DNA of 10,225 nt from Escherichia coli (GTDB taxonomy: Bacteria > Pseudomonadota > Gammaproteobacteria > Enterobacterales > Enterobacteriaceae), in assembly GCF_003334255.1 (NCBI RefSeq), contig NZ_QOWU01000085.1; one strand, given 5' to 3'. Position 1 is the first letter of the stretch; each line of letters opens with the position of its first letter. Shown one piece after another: positions 3,714 through 9,897 of the stretch. A model generated the notes under the pieces. The model was not told the origin of the DNA. It ran no database searches and worked only from the letters and a program-made list of their open reading frames with translations. The translations under genes and the position numbers were made by a program.

Positions 3714-4388
3714 TCATATAGAGGCTGAATCTGATCTTTTTTGTTCACGTCTGGCTTCCACCATTGCAGGCAGAGTGAAGGCGTAGACTAAAAACATTTC
3801 GGTAAAACTCAGGATCTGGCTTGCCTCAATTGGTGTGAAAACTTCATCTGTATGAACTGCTTTATTGGCATCAATTCGTACAATATGAGCCCATTCCTTC
3901 ATCTGTTCAGTGATCAGGCCTTTTTTGTAAATCATCTGAATACGTTGCGACAGCGATTCTTTTCCTGCTTCATCGCCGAGCAGTTTTTTCGTGGAGATAT
4001 CGAGGACTCTGCGACAAAGAATAACCACTGTGTCGTACCGCCTCCTCTGTAAATCCTCTTTTGCCTCAACAAAAGTACGGTCTGCAACCGGGGGCGTATA
4101 TTCTGGTGCGGTAATTTTTTTGACCACAGGATAGATCTTGCGGAAACGGTACTGGCTATTTCCTGAAATCAGAATATCGAGGTCTTTTTTCTGGCTTTCC
4201 GCCATGGGACCGTGATAGTGGTCTGATGGGATTTCAACAATAGCAACACCTCCTCGATGACAACTTCTGCATACAAAAGCGACGTTAAAAAAAGGTGTTT
4301 TTTCAATTTGTTTTTCGGCAAATGCCTCAATAACAGCTCGCTCTTTTAAACAGTGCGGGCATGTGATATCAAAGGAGACTAAACCCAT
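3714..4388 (-). CDS. Zinc-ribbon / DUF4145-like protein, candidate single-gene defence (abortive-infection-type) factor
   Basis: 225 aa from the ATG at 4388, with SD GAGGAA 5 nt upstream on the minus strand; the track ORF extends to 4460 without any SD. The N-terminus has CPHC...CRSC (4-Cys ribbon). The C-terminal ~100 aa (RRVLDISTKKLLGDEAG...IVRIDANKAVHTDEVFTPIEASQILSFTEMFLVYAF) matches my recollection of the DUF4145 consensus (R..GN.aaH followed by EA...L). It is on the opposite strand to flanking phage genes and in visibly lower-GC sequence. Confidence 0.7.
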   Translation of the reverse strand: MGLVSFDITCPHCLKERAVIEAFAEKQIEKTPFFNVAFVCRSCHRGGVAIVEIPSDHYHGPMAESQKKDLDILISGNSQYRFRKIYPVVKKITAPEYTPPVADRTFVEAKEDLQRRRYDTVVILCRRVLDISTKKLLGDEAGKESLSQRIQMIYKKGLITEQMKEWAHIVRIDANKAVHTDEVFTPIEASQILSFTEMFLVYAFTLPAMVEARREQKRSDSASI

Positions 4389-4632
4389 GGATATTCCTCG
4401 CGAAATTAAAGAAATTAACGAAATCATTGAGGTTACTGATCGCCCCGAGTTTACCCTCATGCGTCGTTATGAAACAGGAACCGACGAACAAAAATACATC
4501 ATGGTTGCAGCATTGGCTGTGATGGCGATAGAAAGGGAGCGAAGGGAAAAGGACGTAATGGTTATTCCTGAGAGAAATGATTCACCGGATTTGAGATGGC
4601 AGGAGCCGGAGTGGGATGTGGTAATCCGGTGA
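4387..4632 (+). CDS. Small acidic hypothetical protein (81 aa), divergent from the DUF4145-like gene
   Basis: ATG at 4387 with SD AGGAG 9 nt upstream, ending at a GC hairpin shared with the convergent antitoxin gene. Its start codon overlaps the minus-strand start inside the palindrome CCATGG. No family recognised; it could be spurious. Confidence 0.35.
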   Translation: MDIPREIKEINEIIEVTDRPEFTLMRRYETGTDEQKYIMVAALAVMAIERERREKDVMVIPERNDSPDLRWQEPEWDVVIR

Positions 4633-4686: not shown

Positions 4687-4995
4687 TTAAACGAAGCGGA
4701 TCTGGAGTTTTTTCCCTGTAGCACGGGCGAATTTTTTCAGTGTGGCAAATGATGGGCCGCTTGTACCTGATGCAAGATTGCTTTCCATTCTGGTTATCGC
4801 AGTCGCTTTTGTTCCCATACGTTCAGCAACTTCAGCCTGGGTTAAGCCAGCTTCTTTTCGTGCTGCCAGCATTTCATCAAGTAGTGCGAATTCATCGGCG
4901 ATGGCGTCGTATTCTGCTTTTACTGCGGGGTTAGACAACATTTTTTCTACCATATCATCGTGTGTCATGGTAGGTGGGGTACGTTTACCAGTCAT
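4687..4995 (-). CDS. HTH (XRE-like) antitoxin of a type II toxin-antitoxin pair
   Basis: 102 aa with a strong SD AAGGAGG 6 nt upstream on the minus strand. The HTH GLTQAEVAERMGTKATAITRMES is preceded by a helical N-terminal region. Its start overlaps the 3' end of the upstream toxin gene by 11 nt. Confidence 0.8.
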   Translation of the reverse strand: MTGKRTPPTMTHDDMVEKMLSNPAVKAEYDAIADEFALLDEMLAARKEAGLTQAEVAERMGTKATAITRMESNLASGTSGPSFATLKKFARATGKKLQIRFV

Positions 4996-5326
4996 GCTTA
5001 ACCTCCTTCATTCTGGTTTCAGCTTTTCTAAGCTCGGCAGGTGGAGTTTTTTGCGTTTTCTTTACAAAGCTATGCAACATAATGATTCGCTTTCCTTTTA
5101 GCGTGCAGTAAAAAACACGCCCTATGCCTTCCGAGCCCTTAAGGCGGATTTCAAACAAACCGTCGCCAAATGCCTCTGTATGCGGGGAACCAAGATTAGC
5201 TCCGTAAATACGCATTTTCTCCGTGTACCGAATGTACCGGGCTTGTAAGGTCTCAGGAAGAGAAAGGATCTCAGCTTCAACCTCGTCACTGTAGTATTCG
5301 ATAATGTAGTTCATGAGAGTAAACAT
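4985..5326 (-). CDS. RelE/ParE-superfamily toxin (Gp49/HigB-like) of a type II toxin-antitoxin pair
   Basis: 113 aa from the ATG at 5326. The C-terminal half GRVFYCTLKGKRIIMLHSFVKKTQKTPPAELRKAETRMKEV fits the Gp49/HigB-type pattern. The toxin-first gene order and 11-nt overlap with the antitoxin are typical of HigBA-type modules. The GTG-initiated 42-codon extension in the track ORF is not expected for this family. Confidence 0.8.
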   Translation of the reverse strand: MFTLMNYIIEYYSDEVEAEILSLPETLQARYIRYTEKMRIYGANLGSPHTEAFGDGLFEIRLKGSEGIGRVFYCTLKGKRIIMLHSFVKKTQKTPPAELRKAETRMKEVKHDW

Positions 5327-5338
5327 AACAAATTTGTT
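5327..5338. promoter_or_regulatory. Perfect 12-bp palindrome AACAAATTTGTT immediately upstream of the toxin start; candidate operator
   Basis: Read directly. It lies between a -10-like TATATA (minus strand) and the toxin ATG. Type II antitoxins typically autoregulate through palindromic operators. Confidence 0.4.
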
Positions 5339-5356
5339 ATATACATTCAAGGTATG

Positions 5357-5386
5357 TTGACGACAACACATATCCGGGATTATATT
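5357..5386 (+). promoter_or_regulatory. Sigma70-like promoter (TTGACG-N17-TTATAT) on the + strand, back-to-back with the minus-strand toxin promoter
   Basis: ttgacg at 5357..5362 and ttatat/tatatt at 5380..5386, read directly. On the minus strand TTGTCG-N17-TATATA sits just upstream of the toxin ATG. Confidence 0.4.
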
Positions 5387-5448
5387 CTTCGCACGCCAGC
5401 AAAATCTGGCGTCGGGATTAGGAACCCCGGATAGAAACCGCGACAGAG

Positions 5449-5470
5449 ACACGCCGCGAGCGTGTTTTTT
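5449..5470 (+). terminator. Intrinsic terminator (acacgc-cgcga-gcgtgt followed by TTTTT)
   Basis: 6-bp stem, 5-nt loop and T5 tract, read directly. It lies about 60-80 nt downstream of the + strand promoter, which would delimit a short transcript. Confidence 0.55.
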
Positions 5471-5633
5471 ATTGTCGTATGCACACGCACATCTGAATTA
5501 TGGTGGGGCGTATAGGGGAGCTGAAAAGCTCGCCGGTTGGTTTCCCGGTAGTTCCTAACCCTGTACGTCTCGCCACCCGATGATTAGGAACCTGACGGTG
5601 GTGATAGTTTAGAAACCACTCGAGGGCGTCATT

Positions 5634-6305
5634 ATGACAACTCAAGTTTCTGTTGAAACACTCTCCACGATTACTTACAAGCAGATCCCCGTTATCACTA
5701 CCGAACTTTTGGCGCACCTTTACGGCACAGAAGCTATTCGTATTCGCCAGAATCACCACGAAAACAAAGGTCGTTTCATTGAGGAAAAACACTTCTTCAA
5801 ACTTGAAGGTGAAACTTTACGTGAGTTCAAGCACAGAGTAGCTTTTAACTACTCTGTGAAAATTGCCCGTAACGTTCGCTCCCTCATCCTATGGACAGAA
5901 CGCGGCGCAGCCCGTCATGCAAAAATGCTCGAAACCGATCGGGCGTGGGAAGTGTTCGAAAAACTGGAAGACTGCTATTTCAGCCAGGGAAAAACAACAC
6001 AAACCGAACAGCAGTCGCAGATTCAGCCACAATTCACAGCCGAGGAAATCATCCTCCTTTGCTACATGCAACTCTGGATGGAAAAAGCCCAGGACCTTAA
6101 CAAGCAGCTGTACCCCATAATGAAAGAGCTGAACTCCTCATACACGAACAAGCTGTATGACATTGCGTTTGAGACTATCTACATGGTGACGAAGAACAGA
6201 GACGCGCTACTAAGGGAGGTAACACGTCTCGACATGTCAAGTTCCGTTATCCAGCGGGCCATGCCAATGCTGAAAAGCCTGCGGGCAAGACAATTTGAAT
6301 TCTGA
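5634..6305 (+). CDS. Roi-like DNA-binding protein (ORF6N-type N-terminal domain, antirepressor-like)
   Basis: 223 aa with SD GAGGG 7 nt upstream. The N-terminal region (TELLAHLYGTEAIRIRQNHHENKGRFIEEKHFFKLEGE...LILWTERGAARHAKMLETDRAWEVFEKL) resembles the ORF6N/Roi-type domain as I recall it. It sits just before ninB, as roi-like genes do in HK022-type nin regions. Confidence 0.55.
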   Translation: MTTQVSVETLSTITYKQIPVITTELLAHLYGTEAIRIRQNHHENKGRFIEEKHFFKLEGETLREFKHRVAFNYSVKIARNVRSLILWTERGAARHAKMLETDRAWEVFEKLEDCYFSQGKTTQTEQQSQIQPQFTAEEIILLCYMQLWMEKAQDLNKQLYPIMKELNSSYTNKLYDIAFETIYMVTKNRDALLREVTRLDMSSSVIQRAMPMLKSLRARQFEF

Positions 6306-7631: not shown

Positions 7632-7828
7632 ACGCCACAATTCAAACAATACCGGAATTGCTTATCCAGGCACGAGGCAATATGACTGAAGTTTCACGAA
7701 AACTGAACTGTAATCGTGCTACGGTCAGAAAATATGTCGGTGATAAAGAAGGCAAACGGCACGCCGTCGTCAACGGTGTCCTTATGGTTCATCGTGGATG
7801 GGATAAGGGGAAAGCTACTGATGCGTGA
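7628..7828 (+). CDS. ninH: NinH-like small DNA-binding protein
   Basis: 66 aa. TIPELLIQARGNMTEVSRKLNCNRATVRKYVGDKEGKRHAVVNGVLMVHRGW parallels lambda NinH as I recall it (Fis-like HTH). Its start overlaps the rusA stop (ATGA). Confidence 0.65.
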   Translation: MNATIQTIPELLIQARGNMTEVSRKLNCNRATVRKYVGDKEGKRHAVVNGVLMVHRGWDKGKATDA

Positions 7829-8063
7829 TATTCAGCAGGTGCCTGAACGCATGGCTTTATTCAGGTCGTCTGGAAAAGCGCATGAGCAGCGTAATAGCGG
7901 AGTTCATGGCGAAGAGTATATGAACAGATTATTCGAATGCTATATGAGACTGAAGCACGGAGATCGCTATGACCTGACACGTGATGCTGACGGTTTCTAC
8001 TGCCGTGAAGTTGTGAAACGAATGTTTGAAGTGTGGTGTCATTGTAAAGGATGGGGGCTGTGA
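7821..8063 (+). CDS. Hypothetical small protein (80 aa) between ninH and the Q-like gene
   Basis: The ATG at 7821 overlaps the ninH stop (ATGCGTGA), with GGGGA upstream. The track ORF begins at 7716 but would then overlap ninH by about 110 nt. Cys/His-rich C-terminus (CREVVKRMFEVWCHCKGW). No family recognised. Confidence 0.5.
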   Translation: MRDIQQVPERMALFRSSGKAHEQRNSGVHGEEYMNRLFECYMRLKHGDRYDLTRDADGFYCREVVKRMFEVWCHCKGWGL

Positions 8064-8677
8064 TGCGGCTAACCCCAGTATTCGGCATGGTTAACTTTAT
8101 TAATGATGCTCATTTCCGCCGCATATGGAGGCATCCGAAGAAAATCATTAACTCTCGTCAGAAAGCATGGGTTCACTACATGCTACAGGTATGGGGAAAT
8201 GTTAACGCTGGTGATGATTCTCCTTGTGGTGCAATTAACGTTATTGGGCGACTGATGATTCGCAGTCAGTGGAGCGATGACAAAGCTAAGCAGATTGAGT
8301 CTGTTGTCATGCGTCTGTATGAAGAAGACGGACTACGTGGAGATGAACTCCATCAGAAAGCCCGAGAACTGGTCATCCCTCAGTCATCGGCAGGTAATAT
8401 CATTGCTCTCGCCAAAGAATCCGATGATGCTGCTTTCGTTGAACGTGTGATGGTTGAGACCTTTCATCGTGAAAGCCCTGTCCGTGATGTAGCTATTAGG
8501 CGATATTGCAATCGCGACAGCACGCAAGATATCGCCAGGATGATTTCTCAGATAACAGGAGTTGATATTCAGTATTGCCGGAGGCGGGTCGTGTGGTGCG
8601 AGAGGGTCCTTGATTCAGAAATGTTTTATGCAATGAAGCGAGAATTGGAGAAAGAACTTCTAGTGATTGCTGGATGA
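8063..8677 (+). CDS. Putative late-gene regulator (Q antiterminator-like by position), family uncertain
   Basis: 204 aa from the ATG at 8063, overlapping the upstream stop (TGATG) with a G-rich SD. It is the last gene before a promoter-plus-terminator region and the late-gene start, where Q lies in lambdoid phages. The sequence does not resemble lambda Q as I recall it, so the call is positional. Confidence 0.4.
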   Translation: MRLTPVFGMVNFINDAHFRRIWRHPKKIINSRQKAWVHYMLQVWGNVNAGDDSPCGAINVIGRLMIRSQWSDDKAKQIESVVMRLYEEDGLRGDELHQKARELVIPQSSAGNIIALAKESDDAAFVERVMVETFHRESPVRDVAIRRYCNRDSTQDIARMISQITGVDIQYCRRRVVWCERVLDSEMFYAMKRELEKELLVIAG

Positions 8678-8701
8678 TGCAAAATATTTTTTGTAAATGC
8701 G

Positions 8702-8730
8702 TTGCTTTCGAGAAATGAAAGTAGTATGTT
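8702..8730 (+). promoter_or_regulatory. Candidate late promoter (pR'-like): TTGCTT-N17-TATGTT
   Basis: Hexamers read directly, about 25 nt downstream of the Q-like stop. A terminator lies roughly 110-130 nt further downstream, as in the lambda pR'-tR' arrangement. Confidence 0.3.
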
Positions 8731-8837
8731 TTGTGTATGCTCGGAGCAAAAGCGCACTGAGAAGCGAAAGAGAAATCCTGATTTACCTCGGTCGTCGATA
8801 ATATTTAGGATCGGCATACTGGCTAGATTAGGTAAAG

Positions 8838-8864
8838 GCCTCGGCAGAAATGTCGGGGCTTTTT
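8838..8864 (+). terminator. Intrinsic terminator (tR'-like): gcctcggc-agaaat-gtcggggc followed by TTTTT
   Basis: 8-bp stem including two G-U pairs, 6-nt loop and T5 tract, read directly. Confidence 0.55.
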
Positions 8865-8996
8865 GTTTGCACAACAGGTAAGAGCATTGAACCCGCAGAC
8901 CTCGTGGAATTGGTGAAAGGTGTGCGCAGTGCTCTTATCGTTGTGGTGAAGCTCAATGGCGAGCTAGCAGACAGGCGACTGTGAAAATACTAGTCA

Positions 8997-9068
8997 TGTA
9001 GCGGATCGCCGCGCGTATTGTAATCGGCAGCGCACCGATGGGAGCTGGTTCGATTCCGGCCGCCACAA
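8997..9068 (+). tRNA. tRNA-like element, possibly a degenerate tRNA or tRNA remnant (anticodon-position triplet GCG)
   Basis: It has a canonical T-arm (gctgg-TTCGATT-ccggc), a 7-nt acceptor 3' strand cgccaca, and an anticodon-like arm (atcgg-cagcgca-ccgat). But the acceptor 5' strand tgtagcg gives one A-C mismatch, there is no convincing D-arm, position 33 is A, position 37 is C, and no CCA is encoded. A second acceptor/D-arm-like fragment lies at 8942..8964. Confidence 0.3.
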
Positions 9069-9383
9069 TCCAAACTGAGCCGTAGCCTCTGGGTGTCCTG
9101 AATTCATCAGTGATAGTTACGCTGCGGCCTTCTACATACGATTTTTGTGAAAAGCGGGTGGCAAGAGGCTGCGAAATTTTTAAATACCTCACAATTCCAC
9201 AGCTTGATGATTGTCTGGCTGCCGGAGAATTTGTTAAAAATTGCATCGCGTGGTGAATCCCCCTCAGCGGCGGGGCATCTGGCAAAGTGTATGATCCAGC
9301 GAACATGCAAATTCAGTAGCCAGGCTGAATTTACCGGGAGGCACCTGGCACCATGCGACAGACAGAAATTAGGCTATACTTCA

Positions 9384-9406
9384 GCCCCTCTCCGGAGGGG
9401 CTTTTC
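9384..9406 (+). terminator. Intrinsic terminator of unit 1 (gcccctc-tccg-gaggggc followed by TTTTC)
   Basis: Perfect 7-bp GC-rich stem, tccg tetraloop and T tract, read directly. Confidence 0.75.
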
Positions 9407-9596
9407 TGTGCAGGATGTGTCACAGTTTCCTGAATTCTGAGTACTGTCCTGTTACTCAGGGTGCTATATTTTCTGACGTGATGAAAGTCTGCCGGAAGGC
9501 GGAACGTATCGGAAATGACCCAGTAGAGAAAACGTTGACTCAGATACCGATGCTGAGTTACCGGGAAACCGGCATCACATGACCGCTATCCTTCCA

Positions 9597-9619
9597 GGCT
9601 CGCTCCGGCGGGCCTTTTT
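9597..9619 (+). terminator. Intrinsic terminator of unit 2 (ggctcgc-tccg-gcgggcc followed by TTTTT)
   Basis: 7-bp stem with one G-U pair, the same tccg loop as the other two units, and a T5 tract. Confidence 0.7.
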
Positions 9620-9866
9620 ACTGCAGAAAACAGTTTTCCCGTAAAATGCCACGTTACTCACAATTCAGGCTGGCGATTATTGTCTGGCCAGCGGGAAGTT
9701 TGTTAAAAAAATATGGCATGGTGAATCCCCCTGTGCGGAGGGGCATATCAGCGACAGGTGTTTGGTCACACCCCTTATCCTTTCTGGTGCGGGTTCAGGT
9801 GCTGATACTGAACTCACCGGGAGGCACCCTGCACCATGCATGAACGGTACATAGCGCTACTCTCCA

Positions 9867-9890
9867 GCCCCTCTCCGGAGGGGCTTTCTT
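9867..9890 (+). terminator. Intrinsic terminator of unit 3 (gcccctc-tccg-gaggggc followed by TTTCTT)
   Basis: Stem and loop identical to the unit 1 terminator, read directly. Confidence 0.75.
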
Positions 9891-9897
9891 GTTGGAT

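Follow-up and report, generated by a model that had tools for sequence, protein, structure and literature searches.

A Putative Q-Type Late Antitermination Cassette with a Divergent Q21-like Regulator in a Lambdoid Phage of Escherichia coli

Gene Content and Phage Context of the Locus

The window analyzed here is a 10,225-nucleotide stretch of Escherichia coli DNA (contig NZ_QOWU01000085.1 of assembly GCF_003334255.1). The Escherichia phage PhiR5_2 (PV340546.1) is 100% identical to the whole window, and so are prophages in 18 complete E. coli genomes. The window spans the early-right operon of a lambdoid phage, with genes in the order cII, O, DnaC-type loader, morons, an isrK/C4-RNA/antirepressor cassette, NinB, an HNH/DUF1364 protein, RusA and NinH. 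NinH is followed by an ORF of 80 aa and then by a gene predicted to encode a Q-like late antiterminator of 204 aa (8063-8677), which is the last gene of the operon. This gene and all signals described below lie on the plus strand. The 80-aa ORF (7821-8063) was considered as a part of the cassette and rejected, since it was found in only 15 of 90 loci.

In the full record of PhiR5_2, RusA, NinH, the 80-aa ORF and the Q-like gene are followed by about 4 kb of small genes and sRNAs and then by holin, lysozyme, Rz and terminase, so that the putative regulator stands last in the early-right operon, ahead of the lysis genes. Homologues between nin-type and lysis genes were observed in phages of Salmonella, Cronobacter, Hafnia, Pantoea and Yersinia, in ST64B, and likewise in the metagenomic phage Tbat2_3 from bat faeces. 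The homologues of ZF40 and OS31 come after nin-type genes, in stretches that were fetched without an annotated lysis cassette. All of the phage-annotated homologues examined are located at the end of the early/nin region, and any annotated lysis cassette is downstream of them. Gifsy-1 AntQ was considered as a possible member of this family, since the window contains isrK; the arrangement differs, however, as isrK is found downstream of antQ in Gifsy-1, whereas in the window isrK is upstream of ninB. Many sRNA genes, STnc100 among them, are found behind the Q genes of prophages.

The Q-like Protein and Its Family

The ATG of the Q-like gene shares bases with the stop codon of the ORF before it (TGATG). 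An alternative version of 208 aa starts at 8051; the 204-aa start was preferred because homologues start with MRLTP or MKLTP and an identical 204-aa protein exists in the database. Besides this one identical protein, the database search returned hundreds of homologues of 200-207 aa. PHROG 753, named "anti-termination protein Q-like", matched the 204-aa protein end to end with an E-value of 3.5e-68, and RefSeq also gives this name to homologues. The family is small; out of 1.84 billion representatives, it accounts for 29 clusters (50% identity), and its named source organisms are all Enterobacterales. Its proteins are nearly always annotated as "hypothetical protein", and one close homologue is entered in UniRef as "DUF1133 family protein".

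Three Q families are distinguished in the structural literature: Q21 (PF06530), lambda Q (PF03589) and Q82 (PF06323). Neither the window protein nor its 20 aligned relatives matched any of the three models, and for PF03589 and PF06323 no match to the protein or its relatives was obtained even at E-values up to 10. When the 204-aa sequence was searched by itself against Pfam, NCBIfam and PDB, no informative match was obtained, and its matches to ERp29 and HMG-CoA synthase were discarded as noise. DUF1133 (PF06576) was the sole Pfam family seen; it matched 2 of the 20 aligned relatives, and the window protein itself received no reported score against it in the Pfam search. An earlier note on this DNA had remarked that the protein does not resemble lambda Q, and the lack of a match to any of the three Pfam Q families agrees with this. 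The note had also spoken of an unrecognized Q type, which holds with respect to the Pfam Q models but not with respect to PHROG 753 and RefSeq, where the family is already labeled Q-like.

The Promoter and the Conserved Spacer Block

A PR'-like promoter directly downstream of the gene is composed of a -35 hexamer TTGCTT (8702-8707) and a -10 hexamer TATGTT (8725-8730), which are separated in the window by a spacer of 17 bp. From the window alone, this promoter is not above chance, because only 7 of the 12 consensus positions match and it is absent from the consensus scan, which listed neither the promoter nor the terminator of the cassette and counted 7 promoter-like sites in the window against 10.9 in shuffles.

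For comparison, the regions after the stop codon were gathered from 10 phage records and 80 IMG/VR loci, giving 63 distinct promoter regions, of which 52 were kept after trimming for an information profile. In the 63 regions, whose conservation is partly shared descent since the loci are phylogenetically related, the -35/17 bp/-10 geometry was found at a fixed distance from the stop codon. The fixed layout is TTG(C/A)nn, a 17-bp spacer with G-C-G-AAAT-n-GAAGT, TAcATT, 5 nt, (T/C)A(T/A/G)GCT and CGG. Among the 52 distinct related promoters, TTG at -35..-33 reached 1.7-1.9 bits and TA..TT at -12, -11, -8 and -7 reached 1.6-2.0 bits; information peaks were observed at -35..-33, -27, -25..-21, -18..-15, -12/-11/-8/-7 and -1..+8, with 0.2-0.5 bits between them. 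The sigma70-like promoter proposed earlier at 8702-8730 is thus present in its hexamers and conserved in its geometry across the 63 distinct regions, and a sigma70 promoter immediately after the gene is predicted in silico.

The spacer block GAGAAATGAAAGT (8710-8722, -27..-15; family consensus G-C-G-AAAT-n-GAAGT) shows high information at -27, -25..-21 and -18..-15 and is flanked by variable positions, and it is a candidate Q-binding element. The Q-binding element (QBE) proposed for the Q21-type phage L is located at about -30..-15 (G3 2020 paper), which is the same place as that of the conserved block in the window family. HK75, also of the Q21 type, carries AATTATCC/ATTTAGCC at the place of this element, the same as phage L. 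The Q21 binding element consists of two tandem 8-bp subsites; no such repeat was seen in the spacer of the window family, and some family members show at most a 6-bp periodic CGAAAT/CGAAGT. In ST64B and ZF40, whose proteins share 24-26% identity with that of the window, the -35, the -10, a CATGCT hexamer and the terminator are kept, but the spacer is different and A-rich, which fits a site co-varying with its protein. In OS31, whose promoter falls inside the end of the gene, the comparison covered the hexamer and the terminator, both of which are kept.

A Candidate Pause Element and the Predicted Start Site

A second -10-like hexamer, TATGCT (8736-8741), begins 5 nt after the -10 and is a candidate sigma-dependent pause element. 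The form (T/C)A(T/A/G)GCT was found 5 nt after the -10 in all members including ST64B and ZF40, with the spacing of OS31 excepted. In this region, the information reaches 2.0 bits at each of A(+1), G, C, T and C, and the A and the last T of the hexamer are invariant; in silico, the hexamer thus retains the A and the final T required by sigma region 2. It had not been mentioned in the earlier note.

Transcription is predicted to start at A8737, 7 nt after the -10. With this start, the hexamer would occupy about -1..+5, which would be the arrangement of a sigma-dependent pause element as in lambda and phage 21, and a pause would be expected near 8751-8754, about +15 to +17. In lambda, the pause element is located at about +1..+6 and the pause is expected near +16. 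In the Q21-type PR' of HK75 (TTGACA, 18 bp, CATAAT, 7 nt, TAAGCT), a hexamer that closely resembles it stands at almost the same position.

The Downstream Terminator

The promoter is followed by a tR'-like intrinsic terminator (8834-8868) with a stem at 8838-8859 that can be extended to 8834-8863, a GAAA loop and the T-run TTTTTGTTT at 8860-8868. It folds at -18.9 kcal/mol (z -3.9), a stability that none of 200 shuffles equaled. A separate terminator scan of our own also listed the hairpin at 8834-8868. Each of the 62 distinct downstream regions holds a hairpin with a T-run that begins 61-299 nt (median about 68) after the predicted start, whereas in control windows from the same loci and the same strand a terminator was found in 6.5% within 200 nt and in 11% within 300 nt. 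An intrinsic terminator therefore stands between the promoter and the late genes, and the one that had been read at 8838-8864 from the window is confirmed by its strong fold and by its counterparts in the 62 related regions. Three further terminators were listed by the consensus scan at 9383-9402, 9596-9615 and 9866-9885.

These signals bear on whether the protein could be a late-gene activator or a sigma-like factor that employs a sigma-region-4-like helix-turn-helix to switch on the promoter and does not modify elongating polymerase, with the terminator merely ending a small RNA gene. The sigma70-type -35 TTG and -10 TA..TT are kept at 17 bp, unlike in activator-dependent or ECF-type promoters, and the second -10-like hexamer and the universally present terminator are needed for antitermination and not for activation. 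Such an activator is considered very unlikely, and the predicted fold of the protein, described below, argues in the same direction.

The Predicted Leader RNA

From the predicted start and the terminator, a terminated leader transcript of about 130 nt (8737-8868) is predicted, and a 6S-like leader RNA of this size is plausible by analogy with lambda. The whole leader folds into three stem-loops (z -3.4). A possible 5' stem-loop is located at 8740-8761, with an outer stem GCUC/GAGC in the relatives that overlaps the pause hexamer and hardly varies. Its architecture was seen in all 13 variants of the initial transcript, while the inner stem varies (GC/GC, GUC/GAC, CGUC/GGCG). Judged from per-sequence folds, the z-scores of this stem-loop were only -0.8 to -2.6, and the window copy is weakened (GAGA, z -0.83), so that conservation of a 5' stem-loop is suggestive only.

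The second stem-loop is long (8777-8832) and carries the invariant loop AAUAUUUAG. Five of its pairs survive two-sided changes in an RNAalifold analysis of 8 distinct sequences, which in effect represent two lineages. No Rfam family matched the leader RNA of the window or of nine related loci. The promoter and the leader were found in 35 of 5,426 complete E. coli genomes and are annotated in none of them. By analogy with StxS, described below, it is no more than a possibility that the leader acts as an sRNA.

Linkage of Gene and Site and Exchange of the Module

An exact search of IMG/VR with the initial-transcript motif TATGCTCGGAGCARAAGCGMAC returned 87 places, 80 of which were fetched. The Q-like gene was directly upstream in 78 of the 80 loci; in the remaining two, the sequence ahead of the motif is shorter than 200 nt and thus too short for the comparison. 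With unaligned C-terminal residues counted, the gene ends 59-64 nt upstream of the motif, and beyond about +40 the sequences at related loci are mosaic.

The comparison with HK75 is consistent with this linkage. HK75 and the window agree at more than 90% identity in the NinH flank and again from 8858 onward. In the segment enclosed by these shared flanks, HK75 encodes an almost exact counterpart of Q21 (PDB 6JNX/6P18, E about 1e-90), and the PR' and tR' annotated by its authors are located there as well. The identity with the window resumes at the terminator T-run, where the annotated tR' of HK75 ends, indicating that the segment from the Q start to the terminator was exchanged as one unit. 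Exchange as one unit is the expected behavior of a Q/QBE specificity module, and regulator and target site are thus inherited jointly, as seen both in the 78 testable loci and at the boundary with HK75. The earlier comparison of this locus to a pR'-qut-tR' geometry gains from the synteny, the conserved promoter and the universal terminator, and also from the position of the cassette, which equals that of the annotated Q21/PR'/tR' cassette of HK75.

The linkage also bears on a reading in which the gene encodes an unrelated nin-region DNA-binding protein and the promoter and terminator belong to an independent neighboring small-RNA gene. The leader is structured with some compensatory changes, sRNA genes such as STnc100 are abundant downstream of prophage Q genes, and short PR' transcripts can be functional sRNAs, e.g., StxS, all of which would suit such a gene. 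However, neither annotation nor searches revealed another Q-family gene in the stretch from the nin region to the lysis genes of PhiR5_2, all 78 testable loci have the gene and the promoter motif together although the sequences become mosaic farther downstream, and the cassette replaces Q21-PR'-tR' exactly. An independent small-RNA gene is accordingly held to be exceedingly improbable, and an sRNA role of the leader would also be compatible with a Q-type switch.

Relation of the Protein to Q21

An AlphaFold2 model built on an alignment of 20 sequences reached moderate confidence (pLDDT 77.7, pTM 0.63) and showed an all-helical 204-aa protein. Q21 was the best structural match to the model, over 122 residues; in a Foldseek search, its chains were returned with a probability of 1.00, with E-values of only 0.07-0.2 and structural alignments at 13-15% identity. 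Q21 was also the best match, although a weak one (E 0.017), when the family profile was compared with PDB; the two colinear motifs that carry this match are LTxxQxxW..L..WG and DDDA...YY..S..IA. An hhalign comparison with the Q21-family alignment gave a probability of 74.5% (below 95%) and an E-value of 2.7e-5 over 122 columns. DUF1133 bridges the window family and Q21, because most Q21-family proteins match both PF06530 and DUF1133. The Q proteins of HK75 and POCJ13 match PF06530; POCJ13 Q had been considered as a negative control for hhalign and was rejected, since it is itself a PF06530 protein. The same DDDA...YY motif is carried by POCJ13 Q.

Sigma-factor structural matches span only 67-93 residues and are limited to the C-terminal domain, and a BFVD fold search gave only weak sigma-region-4-like matches. 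No sigma region 2 was found in the 204-aa protein, which thus does not combine regions 2 and 4 as a sigma-70 or ECF factor does. The longer Q21 match and the missing region 2 speak further against the activator or sigma-like factor considered above. In the earlier note, the protein had been left as either a member of another Q family or a different regulator; the results fit a divergent Q subfamily that is a very distant structural relative of Q21 better than an unrelated regulator.

The window protein differs from Q21 in three respects. It has about 27 extra N-terminal residues; in the alignment, a helical insertion of about 40 residues (about 63-103) stands where the H2-H3 segment of Q21 forms the torus; and the loop of about 17 residues in the Q21 HT[loop]H is replaced by an ordinary turn of 3-7 residues, so that the window protein lacks the helix-turn[loop]-helix with its long minor-groove loop. 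The low-confidence segments of the model (51-57, 67-69 and 107-114) surround the insertion, exactly where the protein differs from Q21.

A Q-type antiterminator that is not homologous to Q21 was also weighed, in which the likeness in fold would come from a shared sigma-region-4-like domain and from model bias. The lack of a PF06530 match, the low identity, the modest Foldseek and hhalign statistics, the insertion at the torus and the short turn in place of the HT[loop]H are all in line with such a protein, and according to the literature (G3 2020 paper), the lambdoid late antiterminators comprise at least five sequence types. This reading is regarded as rather improbable. The predicted structure has the Q21 fold, and with moderate confidence the 204-aa protein is assigned to a very divergent branch of it. 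By analogy with Q21, the RNA-exit channel is the probable site of action of the protein.

Proposed Mechanism

We infer that the cassette is, with good probability, a Q-type late antitermination switch built on a divergent, uncharacterized subfamily of the Q21 fold. In the proposed mechanism, the 204-aa protein would be made as the last product of the early-right operon, and a constitutive sigma70 promoter (-35 at 8702, -10 at 8725) would start transcription at about A8737. Sigma region 2 would then re-bind TATGCT at -1..+5, and RNA polymerase would pause near +15 to +17. As long as the protein is absent, transcription would terminate at the hairpin and U-run (8834-8868) and the structured RNA of about 130 nt would be released. 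Once the protein had accumulated, its C-terminal helix-turn-helix would bind the spacer block at 8710-8722, and the bound protein would load onto the paused polymerase, which would become terminator-resistant. Read-through of tR' and of the terminators at 9383-9402, 9596-9615 and 9866-9885 would carry transcription into the cargo, lysis and head genes.

A more specific version of this mechanism is that the subfamily loads or acts differently from Q21: the insertion would replace the "nozzle" segment, an ordinary helix-turn-helix would read the DNA, and the 5' stem-loop (GCUC...GAGC) might aid pausing or Q engagement. This is speculative and considered unlikely; if true, it would represent a mechanistically distinct fourth or later way to build a Q antitermination complex.

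Significance of the Cassette

Q proteins are the textbook case of processive antitermination, and the present cassette is a compact example of a type that is named neither by the three Pfam Q models nor by the NCBI protein-family models. Its DNA signals are predicted at single-base resolution and have many natural variants, so that the cassette is easy to test. If the relationship to Q21 holds, the Q21 fold can diverge far, with an inserted nozzle domain and a simplified DNA-binding motif, while the same promoter, pause and terminator logic is kept. In Enterobacterales prophages, "hypothetical proteins" of about 200 aa at the same position could be annotated as late antiterminators. In addition, PR' sites mark where prophage cargo becomes induction-dependent, and this cargo can include virulence or sRNA genes.

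Comparison with Known Q Systems

The published design of a Q cassette consists of the gene, PR', a sigma-dependent pause element and a terminator. The closest system is the Q21 cassette PR'-QBE-SDPE-tR' (PF06530; PDB 6P18, 6P19, 6JNX), from which the window protein differs in having no PF06530 match and about 14% identity. The leader predicted for the window is about 130 nt long with two extra stem-loops, whereas the terminator hairpin of HK75 already starts within the pause element.

In the system of lambda Q, PR' and 6S RNA, the regulatory logic and the gene order are the same, and the leader RNA is short and ends at a terminator. Lambda Q and Q21 are independent inventions. The Q82 family is a functional analogue at the same genome position, with no sequence match to the window protein. 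Five Q types were reportedly defined by Grose and Casjens in 2014, and the window family could be included among these.

In Stx2 phages, the terminated PR' leader, StxS, acts as an sRNA. Like the leader predicted for the window, it is a short RNA from a constitutive late promoter and is ended at tR' in lysogeny. The link to the Q21 fold together with its differences, the base-level map of PR', pause and tR' for this type and the putatively conserved 5' stem-loop appear to be undescribed in the searchable literature. Compared with the known systems, the cassette is ordinary in design, and its regulator is probably a very distant relative of Q21.

Predicted leader RNA of the presumed late transcript

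Two stem-loops are predicted upstream of the terminator hairpin in the leader, the predicted terminated transcript of the window (8737-8868, plus strand). The first, a possible 5' stem-loop at 8740-8761 and in the related loci, has a 5' arm (GCUC) that shares bases with the pause hexamer TATGCT, the candidate sigma-dependent pause element. GCTC at +3 to +6 was invariant across the related loci (2.0 bits per position), and this invariance exceeds what sigma recognition alone would need. The sequence of the inner stem differed among variants. In the second, long stem-loop (8777-8832), two lineages differ by compensatory changes and the loop, AAUAUUUAG, is invariant; this stem-loop could act as an sRNA seed. 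It was found in some family members only, where it forms an insert of roughly 60 nt that separates the conserved start region from the terminator. In the Q21-type cassette of phage HK75 (L002 2926-3006), the terminator hairpin starts within the pause hexamer (TAAGCUGCCG...), so that the full leader measures only about 45 nt, compared with the predicted length of about 130 nt in the window.

Sequences flanking the Q-like gene

An 80-aa ORF (7821-8063; PHROG 17609, unknown function) lies upstream of the Q-like gene, the presumed late antiterminator gene, and its stop codon overlaps the Q-like start codon as TGATG. It was rejected as a component of the cassette formed by the Q-like gene, promoter, pause element and terminator, since the two genes occur together in only 15 of the 90 loci.

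At 8942-9068 there is a degenerate tRNA-like remnant. Its Rfam tRNA score of 26.5 bits does not reach the gathering score (29), and no tRNA was found in this interval by ARAGORN. The remnant falls in a block conserved with HK75 and also with phages having tRNA-Thr/Asn genes at that position. The 117-aa minus-strand ORF annotated across it in PhiR5_2, an Escherichia phage 100% identical to the window, is probably spurious.

The prophage sRNA family STnc100 is represented twice, at 9218-9411 (138.7 bits) and 9687-9896 (129.9 bits). Both copies lie within the presumed Q-dependent late transcript and have terminators of their own, at 9383-9402 and 9866-9885, respectively. An additional terminator-like hairpin is located at 9596-9615.

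Early-right region and antirepressor locus

The early-right region carries a HigB/HigA-like toxin-antitoxin pair (4687-5452, minus strand; so annotated in PhiR5_2, with weak RelE/ParE and HTH matches), adjoining a gene for a 248-aa PHROG 1305 'DNA binding protein' (3714-4460, minus strand). The pair and this gene are probably morons.

Within the nin region, Rfam matches to isrK (5393-5470) and C4 antisense RNA (5496-5580) are directly followed by an antirepressor gene (5634-6305), the three together spanning 5393-6305. This arrangement is similar to the P1 immI (c4-ant) region and to the Gifsy-1 isrK-orf45-anrP locus, but in the window it lies upstream of ninB and not, as in Gifsy-1, downstream of the Q gene.
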